Source: Eukaryota sp. GEM-RC1
Taxonomy: Eukaryota
Assembly: GCA_040285855.1 (NCBI GenBank)
Contig: JAUFOQ010000013.1
Coordinates: 1,984,001 to 2,048,000 of the forward strand
Reading direction: 5' to 3'
Length of the DNA stretch: 64,000 nt
The translations under genes and the position numbers were made by a program. The notes beneath the pieces were generated by a model, which was not told the origin of the DNA, ran no database searches, and saw only the letters and a program-made list of their open reading frames with translations. This document shows, piece by piece, positions 26,191 through 58,153 of the stretch (the first letter of the stretch is position 1; each line of letters begins with the position of its first letter).

Positions 26191-26238
26191 TTGCAGATTA
26201 GATGAGTTGAAGAACAAAAAGCAATTTCTCACAAACAC

Positions 26239-28002: not shown

Positions 28003-28404
28003 GCTTACGGGGGGGGTTAGTGTACATATTTCAAGTTGAAGTATAATACATTGTTTTATTGTTTGTATGTGCCCAACTTCTAATTCTTTCTATTTACTTT
28101 ATTTTATAAAAAACAACTGTTTATAGATGAAGGTAACAAAAACACACATCATAATAAAAGCTATGAAACACTCGACACTGAAAATTCCTGGTCAACAGTA
28201 CCACAGTTTTTATACAACTGTGTGATAAATGCATTAAAAACTTAGTCCAAGAAAGAAAAAATCAAAAATTCAACGGTTATGCCAAATTGATAAGTTAAAT
28301 CTCCTATTCTGAGACTTACATATAGATCCAAAATCAGTTAAATACTGAGAAGCCATTTCAGCAATACTGTCAAAAATTGAAATAGCAAATGGAACAAATA
28401 CAAA

Positions 28405-29935: not shown

Positions 29936-30289
29936 GAAGAATAATACGTTATGTATTAATCAAAATAAAGAGTTATATATTTTTCATCTGGATCATATAG
30001 TTCTGATCTCAATTGACTTTGATTGTCAAAATGATTGCATGTCACTGAGTTATCAAGCCAATAAATCATTGATTGACTGACTTTTTGATAAGTGAACCAA
30101 GTTCTGTATTCTTCTCATTTCTATTAGTACAATGTAGACATTTCAAATTCAGAAAAACCATTGGATCTTATTCAGCAAGCTGAAATCCTTAACTGAACAG
30201 AAACACATCTTCAAAACATTTTTAACATGATAGAGTTGTCACAACCATCTCAAATATAACAATGATAACTAGAAATTTTTTTCCATAAA

Positions 30290-31115
30290 GATTTATTGAC
30301 AACAACACTACAGTGTACATACATCTAATAATCAATATCCTCAAAGTCCAGATTGCCTATCTGGAAATTTTCACCTACATTATCCTCATAATGTCTGCCA
30401 CGAGATAATAAAGCGCTAGATACAGAAGTCACCATACCTTTAAAGATAACAAACACGATTCGATTTTTCCAAAATCTAAGATCAAAAGCCCTAGATGTTT
30501 TTTCTTTAACAATCTTCACAAATATTTCAAGTAATGATGTTGCAGATTCACCTAAAGAACCGTAGAGTGAAAATACAAAAGGGTACAACAAGTAATACGA
30601 GTGTGAAGTCGAATTCAATAATTTCAATTTAGCACAATATTTTTGCATTTTAAATTTTTCACCAATCAACAAGGGGTTTTTAGTATTAGATTTAGCAAGT
30701 TTCTTGTTGGAATAATTACAAACATCAATAGACATAACATCAGCAATAATGAAAGATCCATCAAGACCAGGAAATAGGACATCAACACCTAGACGGCTAT
30801 TTCCAAACGATTTGTCAACATCTGTGTCATCAAACAAACCAGCCAGAACTGGTTCCAAAAGGAAACTATTCCATAGGATTTACACATACAATATAATTGA
30901 TCCCTTACTGAATCACGAACCTTACTTTTAAAAAGAAATAAAACGGTACAATTCAATAGATGTGTAGGTGTTACAGATTGCCCACATTGGCATTTCAAAT
31001 TATGTGTAAGGTTATCAGGCCAAATATATGACCGTAAACGCATGTTTAATGACCAAGAGTTACCATCAAGAAGAAGACCGTAAACTCGAGGGATTTGAGT
31101 AATCAGACATGAACT
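30290..31115 (-). mobile_element. CRE-like non-LTR 3' fragment
   Basis: Paralog of 5050-5920: CQCG..HLLNC, ADVMSID, FWKNRIVF. Confidence 0.78.
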
Positions 31116-31173
31116 AGAAAATTTAGAATCAATAAACAAATTCAAATCTAGACTAAAAACTACATTCAAGTTA

Positions 31174-38052: not shown

Positions 38053-38117
38053 CACAAGATGTGTTTTACAAGATGTGTAATACAAGATGTGTTTTACAAG
38101 ATGTGTAATACAAGATG
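38053..38117. repeat. 14-bp repeat ACAAGATGTG(TTTT/TAAT) overlapping the PIF1 stop codon
   Basis: About 4.5 units; the same unit recurs at 41431-41545. Confidence 0.9.
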
Positions 38118-40607
38118 AAACTATCAAAATTACCTATATTGTCCAATCTTTTCAAAATTAAATATAATTCAAATAAAACACACATACCAGTCTTTTCATC
38201 ATTTTTCAAATACTCTTTCAAAACATGAAACAATTCCACAATCACATCACTACAATAACGTTCATCAACATTATCCTTATTAATCACATCGGTAATGTAA
38301 CAGTTTCTTATTGTTTTCACTTCCATACTTGATGCAGATTCAGATCCAATACAATCTAGTACATTATCGACAATTGACTGAATTCCAATAGTTAAGTCCA
38401 CTCTCAATTGTTTTGAAGTAGCAACACGATTATACTCCAAAATAGGAGACAGTGATGTTGTTTCATAATTCACATTGTCAGTTTGTTGATATTCACATAT
38501 GGAATCACATTTTTCATTTTCAAAGCTTTCAGTCTGAACTTCCTTGAGACAAAATCGTTTTTCATCATCAATAAGAGGAAACACTTGGGAACTTGTTCTT
38601 TCTATACCAGCACTGACATTCTTTTTTAATAATAAAATCTTCGTTGGTAAAGAGGTTTTCTTCAAACGGGGAAGTGATGGTAGAATACTTTTGCTTCGTG
38701 GTAACTGAGGAAGTTTAGACTTATTGACACCAATCTCTGGGGAATTTTTGTTAAAAATTGAGTCACAATTAATAAATTTGGGATGAATATTAGTTTCATC
38801 TTCTTCATCATTTACCACAAAATCATCTAAACTTGTTGAAATTGTATCACTGTCAGATTCATCACCAGAATCGGATCCTGATAGTAGTGCTTCTGTTTCA
38901 AATAAATTTGATTTGTCTAAATGATTTTTGTCCAAGTCAATAATTTGATTATCATTATTTTCAATAATTTGTTCATCAACATTATCAACAACAACTTCAT
39001 CAACAACTTCATCAACACAATGAACATCTTCAGGAACAACAGCATCATCCATAATTGGGTCACTCGATTCTGCACAAAAGTTTGCAAACAATGAATTAAA
39101 ATGATTGAAATCTCGTTGAAGACAATGTTGATTTCCCAAAACATACAAATCAATAGTGGATGGCTTAACAGGATGAAAAGTTGAATAACACCATTGATGC
39201 AATTCCAAATTTGGTACTGGATAACTTCTTCCAATGCTTAAAATCTTTAAACTCCTCCAAGACCTAACCCTACTTAAGGTCACATAATGTTGGGCATATT
39301 CCCAAAACTGGATAGCAACTTCAATCCCGTCAATTGTTAAACCTTGGGATCGATGCACTGTTATCGCCCAGCAAGGTCTTAGCGGAAACTGAATTCTTTT
39401 CGCCACTTGAACAGGTCTTCCGATTTCGTTCAAGTGTTCGATAGCAAACCTTGACTGACTGATTCTTTTCGGTTCTGCTTCAGCGTTGAACCGAACATCA
39501 ATATATGTATCTGAAAAATTAACAATAACTCCTTTTGAACCATTAACTAGTCCAAGTTCAGGTTTATTTTGAGTGTACATCACTTGTCCACCAACAACAC
39601 AGTCAAGTTTTTTTTCAGCAAAGTCATCTAAACGATTTTTCAGCACAGAAGTTTCAATGTCATAATATTTTTCCAAATTAGATTCATTGACCGGAAATCT
39701 AGAACTTCTTTTTCTAATTTGAGATTTTAATTCAGATTCATTGAATTTGTCAACAGCTACAAATTCAATTGAATCTGAATTTTTGCCCGAATTTTGAATT
39801 GTTTTAAATTTTCTCTAGCAACATCAGTATTCTTTCCGTATAAAATTGTTGGTTTTCAACAGATTCTGCTGTTTCGAAATGATTACGCAGAATTGATTTC
39901 ATAAAATTATCAAAAAGACCCAATCTCAATTGATTTAGAAAATTAAATTGGGAATCTGATTGCTGTCGAATACTACCAGCCAGTTCACAATATCTAAAAT
40001 TTAAATTGTTCCAAGCTCTTGATGAAAAAGCGAAATCAGAAATTACCACTTTTCGATTTCCTTTTCCATCAAGACTTTTCACAACAGGGGTTAATTGAAG
40101 AAAGTCCCCAAAACAAATTATCTGAATTCCTCCAAATGGTTTCTTCGGGGAGTGACATTTTTGCGTGTGCATAAGTTCGCCCAAAATGTCACTCGCCCGT
40201 TGAAACAAATTGGAGGACAACATTGAAATTTCATCAATGATTAACATTGAATTTTTTGGAGTAATTTTTTTTAACAATGATTTGACATTTGATGGCATAC
40301 ATTTAATAACATCATGTATGGATTCTTCTTCTTTCATAAACTTATAACCAAACAGTGAGTGTATGGTCTGTCCACCAAAAACAGTTGAGGCAACCCCAGT
40401 TGTTGCAGTGAAGAAGATTTCACCATTAGCACGCATGAGACGAGATCCGACGTTACTCCACCAGTATTTGAGAGCATGCAAAAGATAAGATTTTCCTGAT
40501 CCTGCACCACCAGTGACAAAGAAGTTGTGTCTGCTGGTAGTGATTGCGTTAAAGATCTCACGTTGGTCATCTGTGAGATTGATGTTGTGTATAGTGGTTG
40601 GTGCCAT
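38066..40607 (-). CDS. PIF1-family SF1B helicase with long acidic C-terminal tail (frameshift near 39810)
   Basis: GGAGSGKS, ATTGVAS, IIDEISM, FGGIQIICFGDFLQLTPV, QFPLRPCWAITVHRSQGLT, YVTLSRV. Confidence 0.93.
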
Positions 40608-41430
40608 TGAGTTGATGGATTGTTTGAGCGCAGGGAAACTTGGTCTTCATCAAATTTCTCTTTCACTTCAAACTATGACTTTATCCTTGAAATGGGACTG
40701 TATTTCAATGGATCCGACGAGTTCAATATAATCTCACATTTCCGCAGTTCGCGACTTCAAGTCCTTTTATATTGATTCTGTGAACATTTGTCCTTCCATA
40801 CGATTCATATGCAAGCATTTTCTATATCACACCAGTAGTAGTGATGCAGGATGTGTGTTTGTATGTTTATATGTATCATCTCTGACTTCTTTTTGTAATA
40901 GTAAACTTCGTTTTAACATCTATGTCTTCTTGTTTATAGATCAAATCTTACTTTCAAACCAGTATGATATTACTCAGCGACATTACTCAGCGACTAACTA
41001 ATACATCTAGCACCGTCTTCCAATAGAATCAACACAAAATGTTAAAAGAGGAAAAGAGGGAATGTGTTTCCGATAAGTTTGGCGAGAAGTGTAAAGCAGT
41101 GGATTGACCAAACAATAAAGAGTACGCGTAAGTCTGTTTGACTGGGATTAGAATTGTGATGTCTTGATGTTATCATAGAAAAGATATGCAACGACGATAC
41201 GCAAACGAGACACTAGCTGTTTATTACACAAGAAGGAGAATCAAAGACCAAGGGGTAACAATATGGCATTTAACATGTGTATCGGGTGTATGTCTTCAGC
41301 AAATGTCACTAGCCTTCAGTTTGGGGAGTCACATAACTCTAAAAGAACGAGAAGTAACAGAGTGTGGCTTCGTTGTGGATATGAGTTTGGATGAAGAAAA
41401 TGTGGATGTAGATACAAGACTGGATGTGTA

Positions 41431-41545
41431 ACACAAGATGTGTTTTACAACATTTGTAACACAAGATGTGTTTTACAAGATGTGTTTTACAAGATGTGTA
41501 ATACAAGATGTGTAATACAAGATGTGTAATACAAGATTTGTAACA
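41431..41545. repeat. 14-bp repeat ACAAGATGTG(TTTT/TAAT), about 8 units
   Basis: Read directly; lies just downstream of the stop of ORF 41554(-). Confidence 0.9.
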
Positions 41546-41553
41546 ATATTAAT

Positions 41554-42333
41554 CTAGTTACACAGATACTTACAAACATACTTCACTACACTATCATTAA
41601 ACTGCAACAATTCATCACATAAATTATCCACATCAATCTCATCATTACCTGACATTTTCCAAGTCAAAACATGTTTCAAATCAACAAAATCACTTCGTTC
41701 TAAAATAAAACTAAACAAATTGACAACTCCAGTATAATCATTACAATTACCTTTTGCTAAAACAATGTTAACAAAAATCAAAACAAACTTTGAAACAGAC
41801 AAACAATAATCATTGTCCTCAAGTAATAACAACAGTTTATCTTCAATCTTTTTAAAATAAACAAATCTTAAATGACCATCATCATGAAGTGAACTTTGGA
41901 GGAGTACAGGAATTAATAAAGTTGTAGAAGATCGAGAACTGTGACAAAATATTATACCAACTGAACAAGCAAAACTATTGATCAGTAAATGCAAATGCTT
42001 CAAAAATAAACAAGTGTCATCATTGAGACAACAATGAAGAAGAATATCAATTAACCCTGTCCAATTGAGAAAACTGTTGAGTAGAGGCGTGAACTGCCAA
42101 AGATGAGATACTCTGATTAAGACTTCATCAACATTAGAAGTTTCTGATGAAGGGTAGAACAGAGTTGACACAAGATCTTTTAAGGATGTTGATATAGATA
42201 TGGTCACAGAATCATCTCCTAAAGAAGTACAATGACAACAATTGCATAAGGTTATCAAACTTCTGTTGCATTGTTCATGAAACTGTGCTAACAGACTTGA
42301 CATCACTTCAAGAGAAGGTTCGTTCAAAGACAT
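41554..42333 (-). CDS. hypothetical Leu/Cys-rich protein
   Basis: About 260-codon open frame; no recognised motif. Confidence 0.5.
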   Translation of the reverse strand: MSLNEPSLEVMSSLLAQFHEQCNRSLITLCNCCHCTSLGDDSVTISISTSLKDLVSTLFYPSSETSNVDEVLIRVSHLWQFTPLLNSFLNWTGLIDILLHCCLNDDTCLFLKHLHLLINSFACSVGIIFCHSSRSSTTLLIPVLLQSSLHDDGHLRFVYFKKIEDKLLLLLEDNDYCLSVSKFVLIFVNIVLAKGNCNDYTGVVNLFSFILERSDFVDLKHVLTWKMSGNDEIDVDNLCDELLQFNDSVVKYVCKYLCN

Positions 42334-42376
42334 TGAGATTACGATGAAGGAAAATTTGTTTACCGGCAAAATTTGC

Positions 42377-43018
42377 ATGAACTCATCAACAAACGTTTTG
42401 TCTCGGAAACGTCGTCTTTCTGCTTATCAGAGGAAGTATGCATCTAAACATCAAGATGTATACAATGTCTTTTCTTTTACTGAGACAAAATCAACTCCTT
42501 CAACTTCACCTTGCAATCTCGGAATCAATGGAGATTATATCTTAATCACCCGAGCTGCTGATAGTACTTCTCATATCGCAGTGTCCACCAACAATACAAC
42601 ATGGTTTAAAAATGTTGTTGGTGATAATCTTAAGGAAAACATTGAATTCTTTATTAACAAAGAAACTCATATTCTTGAAGAAAAGACTGGTACCACTAAT
42701 TCCTTGTCATCTCAAAATTTATATAATGTTTTGATTCAAGATCAATCTGACTCAGCAATAGACTTGTCTGATTTTGCAGAACATGAACAACATCAAAAAG
42801 TTTCATGTTCTGCAAGACTTTCTAAGATGAAGAAGTCTAAATGTCCAAAGGCTGTTAGAGAAGAAAACTTATTGAATGAAAAAGAAGAATCAAGTAACTC
42901 AAGCAATGACTTAGAGTCAGAATCAACTGGAACAACTGAGATTACTTCGACTCCACTCCCTCCTCTTAAGTCTCTTGTCAAAAAATCCAATTTTACGAAG
43001 AGTCCTTTTGAACTTTAG
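42377..43018 (+). CDS. hypothetical Ser/Thr/Lys-rich protein with NLS-like RKRR
   Basis: 213-codon ORF divergent from 42333(-); no recognised motif. Confidence 0.5.
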   Translation: MNSSTNVLSRKRRLSAYQRKYASKHQDVYNVFSFTETKSTPSTSPCNLGINGDYILITRAADSTSHIAVSTNNTTWFKNVVGDNLKENIEFFINKETHILEEKTGTTNSLSSQNLYNVLIQDQSDSAIDLSDFAEHEQHQKVSCSARLSKMKKSKCPKAVREENLLNEKEESSNSSNDLESESTGTTEITSTPLPPLKSLVKKSNFTKSPFEL

Positions 43019-43390
43019 ATATATCTTCCCTTCATTATGTACATGAAAGAAACCATCATATACAATAAAGATTTTCTGACCATATAGTGAAAAAAAGTGA
43101 GAAGAGATGTTGGTTGTTGACAAACACGACATGTTGAAGATGAAATTGTATTTCAATTCTAGACTTTTTCTTCACACCAATTATGCGTATGAATCAAGTA
43201 TAATTCTAATTTCAGACTATGTGATGCCAAAAGTAAGTTTTGGTGACGATCAGTGCTTACTCTTACATCGGTTCCAGTTGCTCAGAGAGTTCCTGAACAG
43301 ATTGCTATCTTCCGGCTTTGTTCCGCCGCTAATGTATGTTCATCTCTAACCGCAGATAACCTCTCAACCCCTTTCTCTCTGATTGTATAT

Positions 43391-43458
43391 CCTTCCCCAA
43401 AACAACAAATAGGGATAACATTCTCGTTAACAAGAGTCATGCCTTGAAAGTGTTGGTT
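43391..43458 (+). repeat. single diverged copy of the CTCGTTAACAAGAGT hairpin unit
   Basis: TAGGGATAACATTCTCGTTAACAAGAGTCATGCCTTGAA aligns with the 120-bp array unit. Confidence 0.85.
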
Positions 43459-44360
43459 CTTCTCTCGTTGTTGCTACAATTTCTCCTCTCCATGTCAATA
43501 CGCTCATTATTACCAGTCTCCTCCTTCTTCTTCAAAACATCAACCTGTAAAGACAAAGTTATTCACCGCAGTAGCTGTAAAATCAACAGTGATACTTAAA
43601 TCAATAATAGTTGTCCTTAACAATAGAACTTTACAAAACGTAATTAACTGAGCTTGAGATCCAATATTTGTTTGATGACTCTTGATGACTCTTGGAGTAG
43701 AGAGAGGAAAGAACCAAAGAGCAAACGTTGATGTTGAGGATAAACTTTTTCGTTCACTTGTTCAGCAAGTACTTTTGGGGTCGTTCGCAAATCGCTGACA
43801 TCTATCCTGTTTTTGCCTCTTACTCACTCGTTCCTTTATTAGTCTAATCCTGTATTAGTTATTGTAATACATTAATCCACGTGAATGACAAATTCAACAT
43901 GGAATGAATAAACCAAACTTTTTTGCTCAAGATAGTCCCAATCAATAAACCATTTGTATAATATTTTTAATTTTTATTGTAATGTATCCCTTGATGTTCA
44001 GTGATAACAATCTGTTATAAATAAATATATTCTCACAGCCGAATGCTGGCTGTATAATGGTCATACAGCCAGGAATCGGCTGTGAAAATTGCAAATGACT
44101 TCCATAAGAAATCAAATAGCTTAAAATATGTAGCAAAATGTACTGATTCTTTAAATGTATATGAAATCAATCAATCAAAATCACATAAAATTTGAAAACT
44201 ATTTAATAAATAGTTAACCTTAACCAGTGGTCTCTTAATCGTCTCACACTAAAGCAACAACCATACAGTTGTTTATAACACGTAAAGAAGAATTCGTGAT
44301 GAAAAAGTTGTCACTTGAAGTATCAAATTGTTTCACATATATTTCCTCAAAATGCAATTC

Positions 44361-44921
44361 CCTCCCCCAAAGTCAGCAATTAGGGATACCATGCTCGTTA
44401 ACAAGAGTCATGCATTGAACTATTGTTGTTTTTGGTGTTTTGCTTCCGTCGTTGAAACTGATGACTTTCTGCTCACGCCTCCTCCCCCAAAGTCAGCAAT
44501 TAGGGATACCATGCTCGTTAACAAGAGTCATGCATTGAACTATTGTTGTTTTTGGTGTTTTGCTTCCGTCGTTGAAACTGATGACTTTCTGCTCACGCCT
44601 CCTCCCCCAAAGTCAGCAATTAGGGATACCATGCTCGTTAACAAGAGTCATGCATTGAACTATTGTTGTTTTTGGTGTTTTGCTTCCGTCGTTGAAACTG
44701 ATGACTTTCTGCTCACGCCTCCTCCCCCAAAGTCAGCAATTAGGGATACCATGCTCGTTAACAAGAGTCATGCATTGAACTATTGTTGTTTTTGGTGTTT
44801 TGCTTCCGTCGTTGAAACTGATGACTTTCTGCTCACGCCTCCTCCCCCAAAGTCAGCAATTAGGGATACCATGCTCGTTAACAAGAGTCATGCATTGAAC
44901 TATTGTTGTTTTTGGTGTTTT
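44361..44921 (+). repeat. tandem array 1: 120-bp unit x4.7
   Basis: Identical units at 44361, 44481, 44601, 44721 and 44841 (partial); open frame gives 40-aa repeats with LVNKSHA..YCCFWCF. Confidence 0.97.
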
Positions 44922-45359
44922 CCTCCCCCTGATGTCCTCTCCAGGTTGTTGCATAAGAAGACCCCTGATGCTTATTCGATGGATACACCTACTAAAGGTA
45001 TCTCAGTCATGGCTGCATCTGGGATCCATGGGTGACTTGGCGCTAGGGCCAGACAAAGGTTCCTTTCCTCGCGATCCCCCCAGATGTCCAGCTAAGCACC
45101 ACGCATCGCGTCATGCTGCTCCAATATCTTGGATTCTACAGTTTTCTGCACAAAAACGTTTGACAATTGATAAACAATGTTCAAGTTACGCCATTTGTAA
45201 TCAATGTATGCTCCCCCGACAGCCTGGTATACTTCCACAACAGCATGATTCGACCAGGCCCGTCCAATGCTGTTTAACCGCTCATACTCTTGATTTCTCG
45301 AAATTCATTCGCGTTGTAAATCCTGCCTGTTGTCTTTCGTTAACAACAATGTTGACGAT

Positions 45360-46414
45360 AGCACTAACACTGTGTCATCAGTATTTGCAAAGATCTAAAT
45401 TTTTTAAAGATACCTTTCCAACGCCAGATTCTCTTTCCCCATTCACAGTCGATTCAGCAAGAGAAGTAAAAACTTGGCTGCGAGAACTGACCCCACCAAA
45501 ACATTTTACCAAAAATTACATGGAAAAACTACTCAATGAAATTGTAGAATATGCTGAAGCTGCCGATGGCCAAGCTGTTCTTTCCAGAACAAACAACTGA
45601 CGAAGCTGATGAATATGAACAAGTACAGGATTTTAATAATACATCTATTGATATGTCTGTAAGAATTGAAAACTATGCTTCCCGATTACTCAATGTTGAT
45701 GCAAAGTTACAAGATACCTGGATGTTTCGATCACTCTATCGCTTTTATGTCTTTGCCAAGACATATTTATTTTCAAATGAAACTGATCAAGAGAATTACC
45801 GAAATCAACAAATTTCTTCAATTTATTTGTTGGTATTTATGCTAGGTTATCAAAGTTACATTATTTCCACTTCAGAATTTGAAAATTGTTTTGAACCCTT
45901 TGTAAATCTAATGAACTTCCCATTTGTTTTCATTAGCTATATATTCAATGGAACAACACACGAAGAAGTTGTTGAACAAGCAATTAAAGATGCTTTGAAA
46001 TATAAGACAGAGAAAGCCAAAGTTATTGATTTATTACAAGATGTTGAAGAAACACCCGAAGATCTTACGGAAATTCTCCTTGATGTTAGTAGCTGCTGAT
46101 GATACTAAACCAATTGATGTAATGTCACTCAAAGTGCTTACAATTTCACAATGCACCAGTTCAACACGAAACCAAACTCGGTATTGTTTGCTAATTGGGG
46201 AATTTTGGAAAAATTTTCCGAATTTAGGTGTCAGATATCAATTATTATTGATCTTCCAGACACGCCAACAACATTTCCTTTTATTCAACAAAGAACTGAA
46301 AACGCACTGTTTGTTATCATGGATAACAAACAACCCCAAAGCAAAAAGTGGAATACTTTCCACGCGTTTTTGAGGCAAAATCTTACAGATGTGGAATACA
46401 AAATGAGGGAATAG
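45360..46414 (+). CDS. hypothetical protein, frameshifted; C-terminus weakly resembles a degenerate SF2 helicase C-terminal domain
   Basis: Overlapping ORFs 44932-45600, 45551-46099, 46026-46373, 46151-46414; SVLFANW..IIIDLP..FIQQR. Start uncertain. Confidence 0.4.
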
Positions 46415-46724
46415 TCTTTATTCATTTTTTCGTTCTTTATAAATTGTTTCGTTCTTAGTTTTTATGGTTAATTCTACACCTCAGACAGTGACTTACTTGA
46501 TCTTATTTATATGTTTTCTTGCCAATTTTTCGATTTACAAGTCTTTGTATTTTACATATATCCAAAACATAATATGTTTGGACATACACATTACTGATTA
46601 GATTTAATATTGTATTCCATTAAAATCAAGCAAAATGAATATTTTGAAATCTTTTGATTTTGAACATAAACCTATAATTCAGTCAATTATAACTTGCATA
46701 CAAGAATACATTATCGTTTATTAT

Positions 46725-47296
46725 TCACTCTTTTGCTGCTCTAACAGGAATTCTAGTACTACTTCGTCGATCATTTCTATTTTCAGGTAGATTATCAAGA
46801 AACGGAAAAAAGATATCTACCAGTTTAATTCGATATCTCATGTCCACCACCTCTTGTTCATCTTGACTAGAATCATCTTGACTAGAATCTTCTTCACTAA
46901 CGTCTATTTCATCTTCACTGTCAATGACAATAACTTCATCTTCATCATCATTTTCATCTTCATTTTGAATATCAGATACCAAAGTTCTCCCCTGGATTAG
47001 TGAGTTAGCATTATCCACTGTAATCCATCCACAAATACATGAATTTGTCGGTTGCAGATGAGGAATAGAATACTTCACAGAATACGATGGCAATTTACAA
47101 AAAACGGTTGAACAATTAAAGATTGATAATTTTGATAATGCAGTGAATCGTAAATATTGAAATTGAACTTATTATTTTCGTTTGACAATTCAACCAAGAA
47201 CCAATGTCCATAAGTCTTTCTTTTTGAACCCTTTGGAACATTTTCACTGTATGAGTCCAAACAAATCGGGATTAAAATTTTGACACTCAATGACAT
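46725..47296 (-). CDS. Ulp1/C48-like protease domain with acidic tail (frameshift near 47090)
   Basis: ILIPIC..GHWFLV..IYDSL then QPTNSCICG, followed by a SIM-like EVIVIDSEDE. Confidence 0.6.
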
Positions 47297-47576
47297 TTAT
47301 GAGAAGTGTTTTTACAACTCTGAGAAGAACTGACAACCAGTATTACTTAAACGCAGAGGAGTAGATCGGGTATAGATTCTATATTTCTGTGAATAAAAAG
47401 ACTGTCTACACTTGCTGTTTATGAGCTAAATTAATCACCCAATAAGACCATAAGATAATTCCGACATAGCACTGTATGAGAATATGGTGACATTGTCATT
47501 GACCTAGACAAGTGACATCAAAGTCTTGTATAGTACGAAAAGTCTTGATTCATTTCTATCTACTGTACTGTTGGAT

Positions 47577-50500
47577 ATGTCAACAGTTCCTCTTCTCCCT
47601 ACTAACAGAACAGATTCTCCTCTTTGTGCCAATCCTTGCCCAATGAGCTACGTACCCATACTCGTTAACAAGAGTTATGCAGTTTGTAGTTGTTGTTGTG
47701 GTTCTGCTCTCGCCGCTACTAGTACAGATTCTCCTCTTTGTGCCAATCCTTGCCCAATGAGCTACGTACCCATACTCGTTAACAAGAGTTATGCAGTTTG
47801 TAGTTGTTGTTGTGGTTCTGCTCTCGCCGCTACTAGTACAGATTCTCCTCTTTGTGCCAATCCTTGCCCAATGAGCTACGTACCCATACTCGTTAACAAG
47901 AGTTATGCAGTTTGTAGTTGTTGTTGTGGTTCTGCTCTCGCCGCTACTAGTACAGATTCTCCTCTTTGTGCCAATCCTTGCCCAATGAGCTACGTACCCA
48001 TAATCGTTAACAAGAGTTATGCAGTTTGTAGTTGTTGTTGTGGTTCTGCTCTCGCCGCTACTAGTACAGATTCTCCTCTTTGTGCCAATCCTTGCCCAAT
48101 GAGCTACGTACCCATACTCGTTAACAAGAGTTATGCAGTTTGTAGTTGTTGTTGTGGTTCTGCTCTCGCCGCTACTAGTACAGATTCTCCTCTTTGTGCC
48201 AATCCTTGCCCAATGAGCTACGTACCCATACTCGTTAACAAGAGTTATGCAGTTTGTAGTTGTTGTTGTGGTTCTCCCTCGCGAAGTGTTTTAGACCTCT
48301 CTTGTACATTTTTCTCATCCCGTCCCCCATTCAAAAAAGATCTCACCATGGATGGTGACGTGGAATCCAATCCAGGGCCAGTTTCTCAACAAGCTTTAGA
48401 TTGTTTGCAACCTGATCATTTGGTAGATGATGAAGTCTTTGTTGAGTTTTCTAGATCCATATTTCAAACATATTTCGAACTACAAGCATGTAGTGTAGAT
48501 TTCGATGATCTTTTTATTCAACCTGCTCTTTTAAAGGGACATAATCTTTTTCCTGATTTATCGTTAGATGTTTTTTCAATGACAAAGTCAATGTCACTAA
48601 GGCAAAAGGATACAACTATCTCATAATCCCACTAAATAATTCCATGACAGAACCGGCCAATGATGGAACACACTGGGGGCTAGTTATTGTCGATTGTGTG
48701 CGTTTGGAAGGTATATTTATTGATCCACAGTGTGATTGAGATTCTTCAATAGAATCTTCGTCTTTGAAACAGATATTCAATATAGTTCAAACAACTTTTG
48801 GAACTTATAATCTCAAACCAATTCCTGTTGCAACCAAGCAAACTTTAAACGACGGTGTAATTTATGTCCTAAAATATATAGAGAAATTTATTGAACTTTT
48901 GTCACAATTACGATCAATCCCTGGGCTGTATTTGGAATCCAAATTGCTTGAAATAGCCAACATAAACACTGTAGAAGTTCGCCAAGAGATTCAGAACCGT
49001 TTGAGTCGATCAGAGACTAAACCCAAAAAAGTTGTTTCTGATGAGACTTTGACCTCTGTGGAACCGAATAACTGGGTCGATGATGAAGTTATACGACTAT
49101 ATTGTAAGAAATTATTTGAAATTTATGGTCTAGGTTACGATTGGACTTCTTTTATCCCCCCTTCAGTGATGAAGTATTACATCACTAGTCACAATCTGTT
49201 ATCTTTTCTATATGATAAAATTCACGAATGTTTAAATCGAGGCAACAGATTTCTTATTGCTCCCTTGAATGATGGATTTACAGAACCAGCACAATCTGGT
49301 ATTCATTGGGGTTTGATTATCATTGATTGTCAAATCAGGAACTGGATGTTTATTGACCCATATTACGATACTGGTGATTTTGCACAGGATGGAAATATTA
49401 TCAAGACTTCTCTGCTGACAAATGTCCTTTCTATAGTAGTATCAGTTCTTAGCATTCTTGAATTCGAACCAATTGTTTTTCCTGTTACGCGAAAGCAGAC
49501 GCCCAATGATTGTGGAATCTATGTTATAGAGTATATTCACCAATTTTTGAACATTCAAAATGAACTTCCAAGCCTGTCTCATGCTGAAGCGTCGTTGCTT
49601 AATATGGAAATTGATGCTCTTGCTGTTCGAAACGAAATCTACTCGTATCTTGAATCACTTAATCCACCAGAGGAAGAGGAAGAAGAGACTGAGGAAGAAG
49701 AAGAAGAAGAGTCTGAAGAAGAAGAACAGCTAATGTCCAAAGAATCGTCTATTAGGTTAACAGACCTACCACCAAAATTGCAAGAATCTATTTCTTTATA
49801 TCCACCGTCAATGCAAAAGGATATACTTATCATGGAAGAAAGTCTACACACTGAACCTGTAAAAGAAGTTGTTTCTGTAGACACCTTAGTCTCCTCATCT
49901 AAAAAAGAACTACATAAACCTCAAAAAGTGGAATTACTCCTCCATTTAAGAAATCGAATCTATCAGAATTAACAGAAACAGAAGAAATCCCAACATTTTG
50001 TTTAATTGATTTTAAAACAATGATTACTGATGCAAAACGACTTAATCCAAGAATTCTCAAATCACCTAAAACTGTATTGCCTAAAAAAAGTGTCGACTCT
50101 GATGATATTGAAGATGACTCTGAGGAACCAGAGGATGCTGATATACCTAAAATCAAAGAAGAAGTTGAAGCATCGAGAGCAGAACTGTTTGCAAATCCTT
50201 TGGATAAAGAAGACAAAATAATCTTTATCAGTCTCAAATTTATCTATGCTAATTTCACTTCAACTGTTATTTTTAGTAAAAGAACATAAACAATACATTT
50301 GAAAATGTCGAAATAATTGTTTGTGCTTCAGAAGAAGCCATGATTGGGGAACTTATCCAAGTTTTATGCCAAACAAAACCCAGATTGTTGATTGGTTATA
50401 ACACTGATGAACTTTTGTTTCCTTTTTGATTAAACGGTGTGAAATGTTCAAGATTCAGACAAATTTTCATTTAGATAATCCATACAGACCCTACGTACCC

Positions 50501-53442
50501 AACTGGTTTCATAGATGGTGTAAGCTTTGCAATTTTGGACCTTTTGTTTCTCTAGACTTGGCAAATGTTACAAAGTCTACTTATGTCTTCAAAGGTGGTA
50601 GAAGTTTGGAAAATGTTTGTTCAAAGTTGTTTCGTAGACACGTACCGAATTTAATTTTGTCGTCATTAGAATTAACTACGTACTTCACAGAATTTCGAAA
50701 AGTACCAGGCATAACTGTTAACAAGGAAATAGAGAAAGAGTTTAACCTACTCGCACACAACAAGCAAACCTTCAAATTGTGGACTGATAATGCAAAAGTA
50801 ATTACTCTGGTTGAAGATTTACTTCAACGAATTGACTGTTTATCTGAATTACATGAATATTTCTTTGATGAAGAAACTCAACATGTTCTAGAGCGCCATC
50901 CAATTAAAGTGGTGAAAAAGGGACTGGAGAAAGTTATTAAAGATCAGGATAATATTGTCTTAATTAAAGACTGTGTTATCCGAAATCAAAGAGCAACAGT
51001 AAGGGGTTCTAATTTTTTGAAACATCTCCTTATGTGTGAGTTTGAAACACGTGGATGTGAATTAAATTTGATGAATCCTCATTACTTTCGTCCATATCTC
51101 CTAGAATCTTCTGTTTCGGAATCAAAAGAACGAGATTTAATGTACGAACATGATTTTTTTGAGAAACGACTTCGTGAAATGAAGTTAATGTACGAACATG
51201 ATTTTTTTGAGGAACGACTTCGTGAAATGGAGTTAATGAATGAACATGATTTAGATTCGTATCCATCAGAACTTTCTGATTTGTTGGCATTAAATGATCG
51301 TAAATTAATGAAGAGCCATGATACAATGCCTGATTCTGATGATGCATCTGTTTCTGATCCGTTAGAACCTTCTGATTTACCCCTCTACACTAAGTTTTCC
51401 GTAGTCTTACCAGATTTGGAAAAAACTGCTTAAACACGATTCTATTAGACAAGTATTGAGACGGATGTATGTGAAGAAATAAACTGGTTCTTCAATTACA
51501 AAGTCAGAACTAGAAATGTCAAGAGCAGAGGCTCAAAAAGTGATTGACGATTTCCAAAAATCTTCAAGACTAGAAATGAACGAAAAAGAAAAAATTGCAT
51601 TTCACTACTTGAACAACTTTTCTCCACTTCTACAACAGTTGTCTGATGAAATTGGAACAAATCAAATTTCATTTCCTGATTCTACGTCAATGTCTCCCAT
51701 ATTTCATTACACTGCCAAACAAATTTCTACAAATTATGCAAACAATATGGTCAAAAATTTTCATGATTATGTATTCAGATTCTTTAATCTGGTAACAAGA
51801 AAGAAGGTCAGACTTGAACAAATCAATGATCAAGTTAGTAAGAAAAAATTGATTTCGAAATTGAATTCAGTCAGAGATTCGATTATCAATGGAAATTTTG
51901 ATGACATTCCAATTGAAGATCACGAGATTTTCCCTAATCAACGTGAAGAACTAACGTTGAGGTTTTTTGCGTATTTAAAATTTTCTTTGTTTCCAATGTT
52001 TTCAAAAAGAACATTTACTATTTACAGAAAGCAAAGCCGACAGAGTTAATTTCTCATGCTCTGTACATCAACCGAACAATACAATCTTTGTGTTTGGTTG
52101 ATGGAAAACCAATCAGTGTAAACAACCCTTTTCCAATGACGAAGACATTGATTCCTCAGCATATTCGTTTGGACACAGGTTGGATGAATGATAGATTTGT
52201 TCATATACGTGGCAAAAATGCAGATGAAATAAGAAAAAAGGTCTTTGATCAGGTCCTTACTGACAAAGCTGTGGCACCAACAAAATCATTTGTCTTTAGA
52301 TATTCTTCAATTCTGACTGATGGAATTTCTTGTTGTTTGGTTTTAATGAGGAAAGATTTAGTTGATGAAGATGGAAATACTTTCAAAGATTTTACTGCTA
52401 AATCTCTCGGAACTTCGGAAAGATACATTCACTCTTTATCAAATGAGAATATTCACGAATTACAATTGAAAGAAAAAAAGAATTGTCGGTGTCGATCCCA
52501 ATGAATATGATTTAATGTATTGTGTTTCAGAAAAGACAGTCGATGAGCTTAAAGAAGAAGATATTTCTGAAAATAATCCACTCAAAAAACGATTACCCTT
52601 AGAAATCAGAAGTAAGAAAAGAGGAGGAATTAAGAAAAGAAAGAAACAGTTACAAGATTGGAAAAATTCGAATAATGATGTAAAAATCAAAGAAAAAGAC
52701 TAAGCACAAATGGAAGAAGTTTAATTACACAGCGGGAGAAAGAGCTTATGATAGGAAATCTAAAAAATATCGTAAATCTGAAAATAGAAAACTGAAAGAA
52801 TTTTCTATCGAATCACCAGACGAAACTGTCACTGAAAGACAACTTAAAGATTTTTTGGTTCTCCACCCTGATAGAATTCTTGTAACAGGAAGAGATGTCG
52901 TTAACCAATTCTCCAATGCTGTATCAAACGGGGAAAGAAAGTCGTGTTTCAGTGACACATTTGAAACATATATTAAAGAAGCTGAACGATATAACGTATA
53001 TTTGAGTTCTTTCTACGAAGATGACTGGTTTAGAAAGAGGAAATTCCAAATTTATTCTAATAACCAACGTTCGGAGAAAAACATGCTAGAACGCTTCAAT
53101 TTAACATATGGACCTCCAGAAGACGTCGTCATTGGCTATGGGGATTGGAGCTCAAAAGGTAAAACAAGAAAGTCTCTGTCTCTCGAGAGATCTAAAACTC
53201 AAACAACAGATCTCGAGAGTGGTAAGGATACTTTGGCGAGAGACCAGAAGAAGAAGAAGACTGCGACCAAGAAGGAGAAAACTTCAACAGGAAAGGCTCG
53301 TAAGAAACCAACATGTGGAAATTGTGGCCAAGAAGGTCATAACAAAACGTCATGCAAGAATCCACCAAAAGAAATGAGTTCGCCTAAAAGAAGAAGCGTA
53401 AAGTCAGTCAAGAAGAAGAAGCTCTCTCGTAAAGGACTTTAG
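47577..53442 (+). CDS. inferred polyprotein: Cys-rich repeats - 2A - Ulp1 x2 - PolB exonuclease-like - Fanzor1-like - CCHC; disrupted in this sequence
   Basis: Abutting same-strand ORFs whose breaks fall inside or between domains, mostly at A/T homopolymers; two in-frame stops (TGA 48737, TAA 51480). Continuity is inferred. Confidence 0.6.
47610..48275 (+). repeat. tandem array 2: 114-bp unit x5.8
   Basis: Units at 47610, 47724, 47838, 47952, 48066 and 48180 (partial); one C-to-A variant at 48003; 38-aa repeats with LVNKSYA.CSCCCG. Confidence 0.97.
48339..48380 (+). other. 2A / StopGo ribosomal skipping peptide
   Basis: DLTMDGDVESNPGP matches D(V/I)ExNPGP exactly, in frame between the repeats and the first protease domain. 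Confidence 0.9.
48390..49650 (+). CDS. tandem Ulp1/C48 (SUMO/NEDD8-protease-like) domains; the first lacks the catalytic Cys
   Basis: Domain 1: LVDDEV, IIPLNN, GTHWGLVIVD, FIDP, KQTLNDGV. Domain 2: WVDDEVI, IAPLND, GIHWGLIIID, FIDP, KQTPNDCGIYV. Confidence 0.85.
49990..50860 (+). CDS. family-B DNA polymerase 3'-5' exonuclease-like domain, probably inactive
   Basis: IPTFCLIDFKT, DKIIFIS, SEEAMIGEL, PRLLIGYNTDELLFPFLIKRC, SLDL..RSLENVCSKL; the Exo I E, Exo II D and Exo III YxxxD are not canonical. Confidence 0.65.
50900..53442 (+). CDS. Fanzor1-like (eukaryotic TnpB homologue), C-terminally altered
   Basis: FLKHLL, HYTAKQISTNYANNM..FHDYVFRFFN, PFPM..IPQHIRLDT, ILTDGISC, RuvC-I IVGVDPN (Asp 52494-96), FNYT..ER, RKRKFQIY..QRSE, VVIGYGDWS; no RuvC-II/III before the stop. 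Confidence 0.85.
51138..51250 (+). repeat. 48-bp in-frame repeat, about 2.3 copies (LMYEHDFFE.RLREM.)
   Basis: Read directly; inserted in the Fanzor N-terminal region. Confidence 0.85.
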
Positions 53443-53495
53443 TGTACTTTTAACGGTACACAGTGCAGTGGGCTTAGCTCACTGGGTGTCTGTGG
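53442..53495 (+). ncRNA. candidate omegaRNA scaffold (continues at 57691-57700 beyond the LTR element)
   Basis: Hairpins GTGTAC/GTACAC, CAGTGGGC/GCTCACTG and, after removing the insertion, GTGTC/GATAC directly 3' of the Fanzor ORF. Function inferred from position only. Confidence 0.4.
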
Positions 53496-53595
53496 TGTTA
53501 GGTCAATAATGACGTGTAATTATGACCTATGCCTTTTTATAGAATTGTACTTTAATAAACCTATCTTCACCATCGTTTTACGCGTAGAAGCAACA
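53496..53595 (+). repeat. 5' LTR
   Basis: TGTTAGG...GCAACA, identical to 57587-57686. Confidence 0.97.
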
Positions 53596-53625
53596 GTGAT
53601 CACTGACGCTATTAGTCACTGAACC

Positions 53626-54381
53626 ATGGACCGCCCTAGAACCACCCCCATCCTCAAAGGACTTACCTCAGACCAAGTACAACAATATCTTGATGATTTC
53701 AAGATCGCCCAGAAGAACGATGACTCTCTCTCCCTGAGAGATGGAATCCCAGACACCATCTTGGAAGGCATTTACCTTCTAAAGCCTCTGGCCGACCCTG
53801 ACTCTGAAGAAGACCCACACGAGGGATTTGTCTCTGCCGAAGAAGAGCTGAAGGGTTTCTTCGAGAGCCGTCAAGCGATACCCAGTCTCCGTTCCCTTGT
53901 CTCATCTCTAGCAAACTTAAGACCTGATTTCAAAGAAAGAGATACGGAGGCAAGATACCTCGCGTTCGCCGCAAAGTTTCAGAGATTGAGGAAGAGAGCC
54001 AGTCACCTCAACCTTGACCTCCCATGGTGGATGAATCAATTTGCCGAGAAGGTTCGTCCCACCAGGATTGCCGAAGACTTCGTAGAACGCATTAAAGCCG
54101 GTTCCATCCCCTCGATGACTATTCTGCTACAAGAAGTCATTGATGAATGCAGCGCTTTTGAACGACTTGATGGGTACCGCACGCCCAACAAACCTTCGTC
54201 CCGCAACCACCATAGCACCCAGTCCCTCACGACCAGTGGAACTCCCAAAGCCCTCACCAAACTCACGGACAAAGAAAGAACCGAGCTCTCTCGATCTGGT
54301 TCCTGCTTTAGATGTAGACAGAAGGGTCACGTGGCTGCGATGTGCCCTCTCGCTGTGAAAAAAAGAAATAAACGCTATTAA
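53626..54381 (+). CDS. gag: Gag with CCHC nucleocapsid knuckle
   Basis: CFRCRQKGHVAAMC. Confidence 0.9.
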   Translation: MDRPRTTPILKGLTSDQVQQYLDDFKIAQKNDDSLSLRDGIPDTILEGIYLLKPLADPDSEEDPHEGFVSAEEELKGFFESRQAIPSLRSLVSSLANLRPDFKERDTEARYLAFAAKFQRLRKRASHLNLDLPWWMNQFAEKVRPTRIAEDFVERIKAGSIPSMTILLQEVIDECSAFERLDGYRTPNKPSSRNHHSTQSLTTSGTPKALTKLTDKERTELSRSGSCFRCRQKGHVAAMCPLAVKKRNKRY

Positions 54382-57300
54382 CTATGAAAGCCCCCCAATC
54401 CCTCCTATCCTAATCCCTGTACTCATAAAGGAAGAAGAAATTCAAGCCTTTGTGGACCCCGGATCAGACTGCAGCCTCATCCACTCAGACTTAGTGAAGA
54501 GACTACAACTCCCCCTCTTTTTTCACCAAAGTACAACTGAAAGGAATCCACGGCACCTGCAGAACCTCCTCTGGTACATCCCAAGTTCAATTTGAACTAC
54601 TCGAACCACATAATCTGATCTCCACAGCCAAGTTCATCGTCTATGACACGGCTTACCCTATAATCTTAGGCCGTGAAATTCTTCACGATCTAGGACTTCT
54701 GTCGGAAAAAGGTCTATTCTTGCATCTTAAAGGCAAAGAGGACTTTTCAGACGATGACTTAGAACCCGAAGTACCAGATCCCTGTCAGCCAAACCCTTGG
54801 AACAAGGACGATGACCCTAACGAAGTATCCAAAATCAGAGTACAACTAAATCCCTCTCAAGCATCACAGATATACTCTCTGCTACAACACCATGTCGAAG
54901 TCTTTGATACTAAGCCTCATCCCGATGGTCTAGACTGCCCAGATTTCGAAATCCCCTTCCTAGACGAGACCAAAACTACCAAAGCAAGACCTAGGCCCAT
55001 GAAACCCAGGCAACTCGAATTAGCCAAATCACTTATGAAGGAACATGTCGACTCTGGTGTCGCAAGAGTTGTTAGCGAACCCCGGTTTAGTAGTCCCGTA
55101 GTTCTCAAAGAATATGCTGATAAGAAACCACGACTTTGTGGCGACTACAAGAAGATCAATGAACTGAGCATCACCCACGCTGCTGAAATTCCACGAATTA
55201 CTGACATTATCCAAAAGATAGCGAACGCCACCTATGTAGCCGTCTTCGACCTAAGACGGGCTTTCTACCAACTTAAAGTGAGCCCGAGAGATGTGGAGAA
55301 AACTACTATCTCTGTACCAGGCCTAAGCATTCAATACCTCAGAGCGCCTTTCGGATTAAAAAATGTTCCGGGATACTTTCAAGACCGTCTTGGGTCAATC
55401 TTCAACACTGACTACTCCGACATCTACATCGATGACCTCATCGTTTTTGGAACCGACTTTGAGAGGTTCAAACAGAGCCTCGACAAGACCCTCGGAAAAG
55501 TCAAAAGCATCAGAGCTCGCCTGGCCGCCCCAAAAGCTGTGATCTCAGATTGCTCTCACAAATTCACACTTTTAGGGTTCACATTCCTTAACCAAACGAA
55601 ATCTATCAGTGAGGACAAACTCAAGCCCATAAGAAACGCCACATACCCCGCCACCATCAAACACCTACGCTCCTTCCTCGGGGCAACAAACTATCTAAGA
55701 GAATTCATTCCCAATTTTGCAGACATCACGAGGCCCTTATACGACCTACTACAGAAAGGAGCCAAATTCATATTCTCAAAGAGCCACAAAGAATCGTTTG
55801 ACGTCTTGAAGCACCACGTCATTAACTCAGTCCCTCTCCAGCTGCCGACAGAAACTCAGAAAGTTATTGTGACGACAGATGCTTCCGATTCTCGCCATCG
55901 GAGGTGTGATCTGGGCCGACAATACAGCCGACGAAAATAGTCCCCTTGACAAAAAGAACTTAGTCCCTTTGTGTTTTTACTCAAAGAAATTGAACAAGAC
56001 GCAGACAGCCTGGTCCACGAACAAGAAAGAGTTGTTCGCCATAGTTTCTACCCTGTGTCTCTCAAGCCTATCCAACTTCCTGATCTCTCATCCTTTCACA
56101 CTTTACACCGATCATCGCAACCTTGTCCATCTCCACACAACAGAATCTCCCATGATCTCCCGATGGAGACCCCTACTCAGCCAATTCTCTTTCAAGATCG
56201 TCCACACACCTGGAAAAATAAACTCCATGGCTGACTTCTTGTCGAGAAAACCCGACCACCTTCTTCCACACAGAGAAGTCCTAACCACCGAATCACCAGT
56301 TAACAAGACCTCCGACAACATAGTGTCGCACCTGATCAAAACAGTTCACTCTAATGGACACCTAAGCCAGGAACGCACCCTCAACCACCTGAAAACTTTG
56401 GGCTTCAGTGCCCCTAACCTCAAAGACTGGGTCAACGACATTGTTTCCAACTGCGGAACATGTCAAAAGGCGTCAAACATCCCAAGAAAGACACCAGCCC
56501 ACACAGGCTCCCTGGGATCATCAATGCCCTTCGAAAGCCTCCATCTAGACTGCATAACTTTACCAAAAGACGCTAAAGGATTTAAACATGTACTAGTAAT
56601 AGTTGATGGCTTCTCGAAATTCACTTTCTTAACACCTTTGAAGAATCTCTCAGCGGAAGCAACATGTGATATCCTCACTTCTAAAGTGTTCAGCATTTTT
56701 GGACTTCCTCTACAAGTCCACTCAGATGGAGGAAAGGAATTCGCAAACAACCTGGTCAAAAACCTCCTCTTGAAACTAGGAATCCAACAGACCTTTTTCT
56801 TTCCCCAACCACAGCCCATCAAACGGGCTAGTAGAACGAGTTAACCAAGAAGTTGTCAAACTTACACGAAAACTGTCCACTGACACTGCTAATCATACAG
56901 ATTGGAGTGATAAAATCCCTCTCATCCAGCTCATTCTCAACTCAGAACCCTCTTCCACTACCAAGTTGTCACCATATTCCTTATTATTTGGTAGACACAT
57001 TAAGCCTAGACGTAACCTACTCGATGTACTACTGTCCAGAAATGACACCACAGACAAAACCTCAAACACTCATTCCTTCGTTGATCAGATATCCAAAGAA
57101 ACCCTTAAGCTTACTTCTGAAGCTATCAGTCGAAAGAGGAAAACCGTTGATGCCACCCCAAATGAATTTCTAGTCGGTGACCTGGTACTCCTCGACGATG
57201 CTCCGAACAAACTGTTGAACTTACTAGGACCGTTTCAAGTGACCAAGAAACATGGCAACTCCGGTTACGAGATCGAATCAATAGTAGCTGACAAGAAGAG

Positions 57301-57592
57301 GACTGTGTCAGCATATGATTTACACTCCTTCTCCCCCAACATCCTTGACGAAAACGCCAAAAGACTTGCTGCTTCAGACTATGATGAACATCTTGTCAAC
57401 CAAGTTATTGACCACGACCCAAAGAACGAATGGTTTCTGGTCAGGTTTTCAAATGGAGTTGAAGCTTGGCAACCACTGGACAACCTCAGAGATGGCAGCA
57501 AGATCAATTGTTACCTACAAGACTACTGCCTAAAGCACAAACTAAACCTCACCCCTAGAAAGAGGGGAAGGAAGGGGAAGAAGCAATGTTAG
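54382..57592 (+). CDS. pol: Pol (protease, RT, RNase H, integrase, chromodomain), frameshifted
   Basis: AFVDPGSD, RLCGDYKKIN, PFGLKN, YIDD, TDAS, YTDHRNL, H..H..CGTC, HSDGGKEF, VNQVIDH..FLVRF..WQPLDNL. Confidence 0.93.
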
Positions 57593-57686
57593 GTCAATAA
57601 TGACGTGTAATTATGACCTATGCCTTTTTATAGAATTGTACTTTAATAAACCTATCTTCACCATCGTTTTACGCGTAGAAGCAACA
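57587..57686 (+). repeat. 3' LTR
   Basis: Identical to the 5' LTR. Confidence 0.97.
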
Positions 57687-58153
57687 GTGGTTTCGATACT
57701 CTAATCAAAATGAAAATTAACAAAGTTGTGTACTTTGGGAATATCCATTTGAGTTGAGAACCACATACGTTTTTATTGTTGGAGTACAAGACAAGTTATG
57801 TTGTGATCTTACCATGTTGGTCTAGACTCTAGATCCATCAAGAACTTCTACCGAACAATAACACAAACCACGAAATCGTAGTACTATATAGTAGTTCCTC
57901 AAAGTATTTGAATCGATTGCTGGACGAACAATATTAGAACTACTATGGGGTATTCTACAATGTTACACCACCAGCTGCCCAGTCATTGCTTTAAAGACAT
58001 TGGAATTCAATGTCCTTAAATCAATGACTTTACAGTTGATGTTTTGTATATTACAATCTTTTCTCGATCTTTTCTGGTCCTGGTTTCTATCCGAAATATA
58101 TATAAACTGGTTGTCTACTTCTCAACCTATGATGACGTGATGAAAACTGACTG

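Follow-up and report, generated by a model that had tools for sequence, protein, structure and literature searches.

The 64,000-nt stretch of Eukaryota sp. GEM-RC1 DNA analyzed in this study (contig JAUFOQ010000013.1 of assembly GCA_040285855.1, forward-strand positions 1,984,001-2,048,000; hereafter the window, whose positions are used throughout) contains a plus-strand element in which tandem repeats, a 2A motif, Ulp1/C48-type proteases, a family-B DNA polymerase (PolB) exonuclease domain and a Fanzor1 nuclease follow one another. Judged from comparison with its relatives, this architecture is real. The window copy is probably a broken member of a multi-copy, likely mobile element, the intact product of which would most likely be an RNA-guided homing nuclease with a tethered protease as an accessory. 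Each part has precedent in other mobile elements; what appears to be new is the joining of the 2A, protease and exonuclease parts to an RNA-guided nuclease. Full-text literature searches, in which loosely matching papers were surveyed in part, returned no natural Fanzor fusion to an exonuclease, a protease or a 2A motif. The word "exonuclease" occurs 0 times in the main texts of PMC3627910, PMC10711439, PMC10432273, PMC10530073, PMC13565253 and PMC10691335, and the domain names had no match in the supplements of PMC10530073 and PMC10432273 (as far as their text was searchable).

Architecture of the element and its relatives

The element was compared with 56 proteins obtained by sequence searches (P0001-P0056) and sorted into diverged families A to F, with the window belonging to family A. 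A total of 52 come from Eukaryota sp. GEM-RC1 or Eukaryota sp. TZLM3-RCL, the other four being records that match the window itself; these names refer to metamonads that live freely and whose nanopore assemblies were corrected with short reads, according to PMC11316075, in whose main text the term "Fanzor" has 0 occurrences. All six families share the exonuclease-Fanzor fusion, and all are found in these two related protists. The order and strand proposed in the initial annotation (repeats, 2A, Ulp1, Ulp1, acidic linker, PolB exonuclease, Fanzor1, all on the plus strand) held together with every domain call, as did the claim of an in-frame exonuclease-to-Fanzor junction, which needs no correction and lies inside an open reading frame (ORF) at 50411-51433 rather than 50426-51433. 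The claimed single frame from 2A through protease and exonuclease to Fanzor is represented by natural relatives (P0036, P0039, P0040, P0052, P0014 and P0043), and the sibling-copy check that had been suggested found relatives reading uninterrupted through the breaks of the window copy (P0036 and the diverged families).

The closest of these, P0036 (396 aa), is 96-98% identical to four successive window frames, joined without a missing residue, and runs in a single frame from the tail of the protease ORF and linker through the exonuclease to the first Fanzor helix; protease 2 and the linker occur a second time in P0031, at 94% identity. In family C, P0052 (997 aa) holds 38-residue repeats, 2A, Ulp1, linker, exonuclease and the Fanzor start in one model, and overlapping parts are given by P0039 (Ulp1, exonuclease and Fanzor start), P0040 (2A, Ulp1 and exonuclease), P0050 and P0051. 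P0024 of family B spans the exonuclease to RuvC-II. Members of family E (P0011, P0014, P0016) and family F (P0043, P0054) extend from the exonuclease through RuvC-III, with three exonuclease and three RuvC motifs per chain; the 2A motif stands in front of the exonuclease, without a protease, in P0005, P0014, P0043 and P0054, and every catalytic residue is present in P0014 (1303 aa) and P0043 (1473 aa). An undamaged family-A copy would yield a post-2A product of about 1820 aa.

A tree of the region from the exonuclease to the Fanzor start (10 rows chosen among the 56, one or two per family, midpoint root only, with a long C branch) separated (E,F) from ((A,B),(C,D)), with all seven inner branches starred for full support. 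Families E and F combine an active exonuclease with no protease, whereas the exonuclease is dead in families A-D. The protease was found in families A and C, which have the linker in common too; the models of families B and D start downstream. The simplest history would be an ancestral 2A-exonuclease-Fanzor element, followed by gain of the protease in one lineage and its duplication in family A. Since the protease is missing from two intact families (E and F), it is regarded as an accessory.

Table 1. Features of the element and its 3' flank in window positions
Feature	Position	Strand	Remarks
Leader frame	47577..48356	+	ATG 47577; mostly a 114-nt (38-codon) tandem array, 5.9 units at 47610-48282, in frame with 2A
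2A/StopGo motif D-V-E-S-N-P-G-P	48357..48380	+	Predicted skip before last Pro (48378)
Ulp1/C48 domain 1	48378..49012	+	His and Asp kept; frame change ~48580, TGA 48737; by alignment
Ulp1/C48 domain 2, SENP8/DEN1-like	49028..49660	+	His 49304, Asp 49355, Gln 49496 and Cys 49511 all present
Acidic linker and short Pro/Lys-rich motif	49664..49990	+	Motif common to families A, B, E and F
PolB 3'-5' exonuclease, no polymerase, degenerate	49991..50902	+	ExoI 50005-50019; ExoII 50394-50423; ExoIII equivalent 50819-50842
Fanzor1	50903..53442	+	N-terminal WED/REC; RuvC-I Asp 52494; bridge to 53151; CCHC knuckle 53314-53355; stop 53440-53442
Likely 5' part of omegaRNA scaffold	53442..53495	+	7-bp hairpin, second hairpin, one arm of third
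Ty3/Gypsy-like long terminal repeat (LTR) retrotransposon	53496..57686	+	100-bp identical LTRs; 4-bp target duplication; in element 3' end

Leader, 2A motif and proteases

The DVESNPGP motif is the sole full 2A-type match in the six frames of the window, fits the consensus D(V/I)ExNPGP (as given in 10.64898/2026.09.24.754024; 2A background in PMC12338488) and is predicted to be a ribosome-skipping site between Gly and Pro. The same motif occupies the same place in eight of the 56 relatives, from families C, E and F (one with a P to L change). Downstream of it, the proteins of the 2A-bearing families A, C, E and F are only about 25-40% alike, and their leaders differ; P0051 and P0052 of family C also have a 38-residue repeat before the 2A, unrelated in sequence to that of the window. 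The possibility that the repeat units are ribozymes or guide arrays was rejected for now, as units of 99-100% identity follow one another with no spacers, do not fold better than shuffled sequences (z -0.35 and -0.78) and have no Rfam match. A 20-nt motif recurs in 12 copies, all on the plus strand, in clusters of 1, 5 and 6 at 43423-43442, 44361-44921 and 47610-48282 (chance 0.01). Additionally, a 120-nt array at 44.4 kb precedes ORFs at 44899-46414 that have no family match, and may be a sign of a related element, or of one more gene in the same element.

Protease domain 1, which aligns with P0040, P0051 and P0052 at 35-47% (tblastn), carries Gly (48854) in place of the catalytic Cys of a C48 enzyme. 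Domain 2 has the features of a C48 protease, namely a Pfam match above the cut-off (PF02902 Peptidase_C48, 30.9 bits vs. 20.7), a CE-clan fold in the predicted model (predicted local distance difference test score (pLDDT) 87, predicted template modelling score (pTM) 0.88) and the His-Asp-Cys triad. The top Foldseek matches of this model were 2bkq, 1xt9 and 2bkr, with NEDP1/DEN1 at E 3.6e-7 and yeast Ulp1 at E 1.6e-6, and viral CE-clan proteases matched more weakly (best E 2e-5). At the sequence level P0051 matches SENP8 at E 7e-4, and the window domain alone, as well as a nine-row profile, gave weak matches led by a bacterial C48 enzyme. Combined, the sequence and model comparisons suggest that the intact protease is nearest to the NEDD8-specific SENP8, narrowly ahead of the SUMO proteases. 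Families A and C, about 35% identical, both retain the full triad. P0039, also of family C, has a protease that differs from that of P0040 and P0052 and is without the catalytic Cys, hinting at a second tandem pair of one dead and one live copy. The Pro/Lys-rich motif that follows the linker is a possible nuclear localization signal.

Exonuclease and Fanzor1 domains

The exonuclease was recognized through a 49-aa piece (50280-50426) that matches PF03104 (DNA_pol_B_exo1) at 25 bits vs. a cut-off of 23, and P0036 reads through both internal breaks of the region. One of the four acidic residues of a DEDDy exonuclease, the first ExoI Asp, is kept in the window, whereas the full set with ExoI-III is present in families E and F (P0005, P0007, P0008, P0011, P0013, P0014, P0016, P0043, P0054 and P0056); from these residues the domain is judged to be dead in families A-D and intact in E and F. 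All six families nevertheless preserve its frame and fold motifs at about 30% identity, with 24 invariant columns in eight rows.

The Fanzor1 assignment, for which a profile search had been named as the test, was upheld. A 15-row family profile matches SpuFz1 (E 1.5e-22), PpFz1 (E 1.1e-17) and GtFz1 (E 5.6e-16), with Pol delta next at E 1.1e-8; the top three matches in the PDB are the three solved Fanzor1, no TnpB or Fanzor2 is among the best 60 of the 82 matches, and the family was judged nearer to the solved Fanzor1 than to TnpB, Fanzor2 or Cas12. P0011 alone matches SpuFz1 at E 8e-12 and relatives match Pfam PF07282; the Fanzor pieces of the window have no notable Pfam match, a NCBIfam scan of window pieces gave nothing above the cut-off, and single-sequence PDB searches were weak (E 0.16 to GtFz1 for the Fanzor C piece, 0 matches for ORF 50411-51430). 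The N-terminal strand and helix begin at 50903, which corresponds to the start of stand-alone Fanzor1 proteins in viral and metagenomic loci (L001-L003).

The Fanzor1 motif D-X(125,275)-[TS][TS]-XX-C4 zinc finger-X(5,50)-RD, as described in PMC3627910, is present in P0011 (RuvC-I 827, RuvC-II 1067, RD 1158), P0014, P0016, P0043 and P0054, and the window copy has RuvC-I only. A RuvC-II Glu located six residues ahead of the zinc finger, reported for Fanzor1 in PMC13565253, is found in P0001, P0002, P0029, P0011 and P0043, and the family-A siblings P0001, P0002 and P0029 keep RuvC-II, the zinc finger and RuvC-III. In P0043 and P0054 of family F, the RuvC-II motif reads N-E-Y-R-T-S instead of D-E-Y-R-T-S, and these proteins, at 1473-1479 aa, are about twice the length of a typical Fanzor1.

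A phmmer search of 1.84 billion representatives with ORF 50411-51430 returned nine matches, all within GEM-RC1 and TZLM3-RCL. Six query proteins matched only the Fanzor part of one viral and eight metagenomic Fanzor1 loci, some on short contigs, and these nine loci had no exonuclease, protease or 2A match. A search for relatives of the protease among proteins of 299-2000 aa gave 0 of 284 candidates although P0040 and P0050-P0052 fit that class; the word index therefore misses relatives at about 35% identity, and the wider distribution is under-sampled. ESM Atlas had no usable match for P0014 or for ORF 45551-46096.

Damage to the window copy and its 3' end

Both in-frame stops noted in the initial annotation (48737 and 51480) are present, the latter read as Ser in P0044, and this copy is damaged as had been stated. 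Six frame shifts had also been listed (49925, 50280, 50425, 51425, 52475 and 52695); these exist, with the last placed nearer 52684, and two more were located at ~48580 and ~52005. The total is thus eight frame changes and two stops in 5.1 kb, each change at or beside an A or T run of 4-7 bases. Shifts of the same kind do occur elsewhere, with three in a DDB1/CPSF-like host gene (22972-26289) and three more in the pol region of the young LTR element, indicating that about one shift per kb is background in the window. At the break just before RuvC-I, the frame stays open in seven of the 13 family-B members. A -1 shift programmed at the A-run there was considered and rejected, since the -1 frame closes after a few codons and the RuvC frame is +1.

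In the nuclease half, about 130 codons are missing in frame at 53172/53179, a loss that removes RuvC-II, the TNB zinc finger and RuvC-III (residues 220-351 of P0002 are unmatched); the CCHC tail after this gap is native to family A. The initial annotation had recorded neither this loss nor the absence of the Cys in protease 1 and of three of four acidic residues in the exonuclease, the C-terminal knuckle and the LTR insertion. Because the siblings keep RuvC-II and RuvC-III, the missing half is damage to this copy, and the window's own copy is predicted to be unable to cut. The LTR element inserted 53 nt after the Fanzor stop, within the likely omegaRNA, and a predicted third hairpin of that RNA would span the insertion site, with its other arm past the LTR element (~57691-57700). 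With the LTR element removed, an empty-site model places three hairpins after the stop, with z from -2.0 to -3.3 over five lengths of a single sequence (z -2.9 at 86 nt, one of 200 shuffles as good); taken by itself, the 5' part of 68 nt falls short of significance (z -1.7, 13 of 200 shuffles), and there was no Rfam match at gathering level. The first hairpin has 7 bp, as does SL1 in the three solved Fanzor1 omegaRNAs described in PMC11423790. The LTR element is very young and has a possible chromodomain-like integrase C-terminus, seen by eye and without a Pfam match.

No inverted match of at least 11 nt was found between 41500-47700 and the element 3' end, and the ORFs of 41554-53442 have no Pfam match to a transposase, so that a transposon with terminal inverted repeats (TIRs) was not recognized. 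Elsewhere in the window, a Mutator-type transposase with a SWIM finger (16690-18650, minus strand) carries two C-terminal CCHC knuckles that resemble the terminal knuckle of the Fanzor. Mutator elements have been linked with both Fanzor1 and Ulp1 (PMC3627910, PMC13317346), which makes this transposase no more than a lead.

Proposed function and alternative explanations

Siblings that keep RuvC-II and RuvC-III point to a homing nuclease with accessory domains as the most likely intact product, rather than a dead-nuclease effector. Translation would start in the variable, repeat-rich leader, and the 2A would release a product with a fixed Pro start. The Fanzor would load an omegaRNA from the element 3' end and cut the empty donor site, and repair would copy the element back; such restorative homing has been proposed for TnpB and Fanzor (PMC13565253, PMC10432273). 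The ancestral partner may have been an active 3'-5' exonuclease, intact in families E and F, that would trim the cut ends or the 3' terminus of the guide, while in families A-D its catalytic residues would have been lost and the domain retained as a structural spacer. The SENP8-like protease, placed between the 2A and the exonuclease in the A-D lineage, may strip NEDD8 or SUMO off the complex of which it is part or off proteins at the cut site, and could thereby shield it from host turnover or silencing.

Several observations weigh against this reading. All 56 relatives are predicted gene models and not sequenced proteins or transcripts, none of them spans the protease domain to RuvC-III, and family C has no RuvC region among them. 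With neither a transposase nor a TIR of at least 11 nt, the case for mobility is one of copy number alone. For a putative preference of the protease for NEDD8 over SUMO, the lead of NEDP1 over Ulp1 is less than tenfold in E-value. A 1181-aa full-length model was poor (mean pLDDT 44, pTM 0.30) and uninformative on domain contacts; its Foldseek matches, Fanzor1 and then Pol delta, repeat the sequence result. Most background shifts lie at base runs, but one shift of the LTR element has no run of at least five nearby. Finally, all three family-A siblings that cover the region start at a Met just after RuvC-I, where the window also shifts, and that break may therefore be inherited rather than a sequencing error.

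The last of these bears on a different explanation, in which the main job in the protease families is guided removal of SUMO or NEDD8 at chromatin and cutting is secondary or switched off, for instance by a conserved shift before RuvC-I. Protease domain 2 with its full triad and the apparent break just before RuvC-I in all four family-A copies covering it are consistent with this, as is the comparison with plant non-TIR Mutator elements, whose Ulp1 sits in an anti-silencing gene recognizing short motifs (PMC13317346), the window element likewise carrying motif arrays. It is nonetheless unlikely, given siblings with intact RuvC-II, zinc finger and RuvC-III and the persistence of families E and F without a protease; moreover, the window deletion takes the RuvC/TNB surface that binds omegaRNA SL1 in the solved Fanzor1 (PMC11423790), so the window copy is not a neat dead-nuclease targeting module. 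The RNA-guided de-SUMOylase or anti-silencing effector put forward in the initial annotation is accordingly set aside as the principal function, because siblings keep RuvC-II and RuvC-III and the protease is an accessory nearest to SENP8, and it is retained as a possible second activity. CE-clan proteases process polyproteins in large DNA viruses, and the Ulp1-type domain could instead be a self-processing enzyme that cuts the polyprotein and frees the Fanzor, with protease and nuclease acting apart. The weaker fold match to the viral CE-clan enzymes and the long disordered linker between protease and exonuclease would fit, yet this is quite improbable: the best structural and sequence matches are cellular proteases of ubiquitin-like proteins, the conserved Gly-Gly sits inside the exonuclease fold and is also present in the protease-less families, and processing is not needed in families E and F, which have the 2A-exonuclease-Fanzor chain without a protease.

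It is still more doubtful that protease and exonuclease are captured host fragments without a role, with the Fanzor alone mattering and the 2A mainly lowering output. Exonuclease residues are lost in four of the six families and the Cys in two protease copies (domain 1 of the window and P0039), and many of the 2A-like peptides in retrotransposons lower the abundance of protein rather than mediate skipping, as described in the preprint 10.64898/2026.06.17.732966; however, the exonuclease frame and fold motifs are kept in six families, E and F retain the complete set of four acidic residues, and A and C still have the entire protease triad despite their divergence. That the fusion arose artificially, from an assembly rich in errors or from neighbouring genes merged during gene prediction, is hardly credible and largely refuted. 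The density of breaks in the window and the origin of the relatives as automatic gene models, which may hold predicted introns, would speak for it, but in the window nothing interrupts the passage from exonuclease to Fanzor, six families from two organisms repeat the same junctions, and P0036 aligns with the window in order, without a residue left over, through three breaks, so that no intron could fit.

Returning to the homing nuclease, it is possible, though a tentative suggestion, that one RNA-guided protein combines DNA cutting with exonuclease trimming of the ends in some families and, in other families, with delivery of a protease that removes NEDD8 or SUMO at a site chosen by the guide. 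If true, this would make it the first RNA-guided eraser of a protein modification to occur in nature, disarming host chromatin or repair control. The host role of Fanzor and the steering of cuts toward copying the element back are an open question in the field, and the fused candidate helpers name steps at which this could occur, namely end or guide trimming and NEDD8/SUMO removal. Proteins of the P0014 and P0043 type are natural counterparts of engineered exonuclease-nuclease fusions. The swap between an active exonuclease without a protease (E, F) and a dead exonuclease with a protease (A, C) provides a built-in comparison.

Comparison with known systems and neighbouring features

The element resembles the Fanzor1 systems SpuFz1, PpFz1 and GtFz1 in RuvC-I, the rearranged RuvC-II Glu, RuvC-III, the WED/REC start and the predicted hairpins after the stop, and differs in 500-850 extra N-terminal residues (2A, exonuclease and, in some families, protease), the family-A CCHC knuckle and the lack of detected TIRs. 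The protease shares its fold and His-Asp-Cys triad with Gln with SENP8/NEDP1/DEN1 and the Ulp1/SENP enzymes, although identity is about 17%, it is part of a polyprotein and it is duplicated in family A with one dead copy. Compared with the proofreading domain of family-B polymerases such as Pol delta, the exonuclease has PF03104 above the cut-off and, in E and F, intact ExoI-III, whereas no polymerase follows, the Fanzor starts about 25 residues after ExoIII and the catalytic residues are lost in A-D. The non-TIR Mutator elements Kaonashi/VANDAL resemble this likely mobile element in having a captured Ulp1 and short repeated motifs, according to PMC13317346; here no transposase or VANC-like domain was found, and the partner is an RNA-guided nuclease. 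Non-LTR retrotransposon ORF2 proteins with a 2A and an N-terminal Josephin or OTU deubiquitinase domain have the same layout of 2A, protease and nuclease in one frame (as described in 10.64898/2026.06.17.732966), but in the present element the protease is of the C48 type, exonuclease and Fanzor stand behind it and there is no reverse transcriptase. An origin from a giant virus or Polinton was considered and rejected, as no polymerase or capsid ORF lies near and the protease is closer to cellular enzymes.

Among the neighbouring features, a PIF1-like helicase gene (38066-40646, minus strand; Pfam E 2e-33) is flanked on both sides by 14-nt tandem arrays (38054-38117 and 41423-41543) and together with these resembles a mobile unit of its own. 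Also recognized by eye was a non-LTR-like element that carries a restriction-like endonuclease motif and is present as several copies or fragments of 90-99% identity (45-2379, 5060-6540, 20336-21827, 28400-31205 and 57885-57928), of which three scanned pieces gave no Pfam match. Additionally, an ORF resembling a ubiquitin-conjugating E2 by eye occurs as a near-identical tandem duplication at 18796-19227 and 19715-20146.

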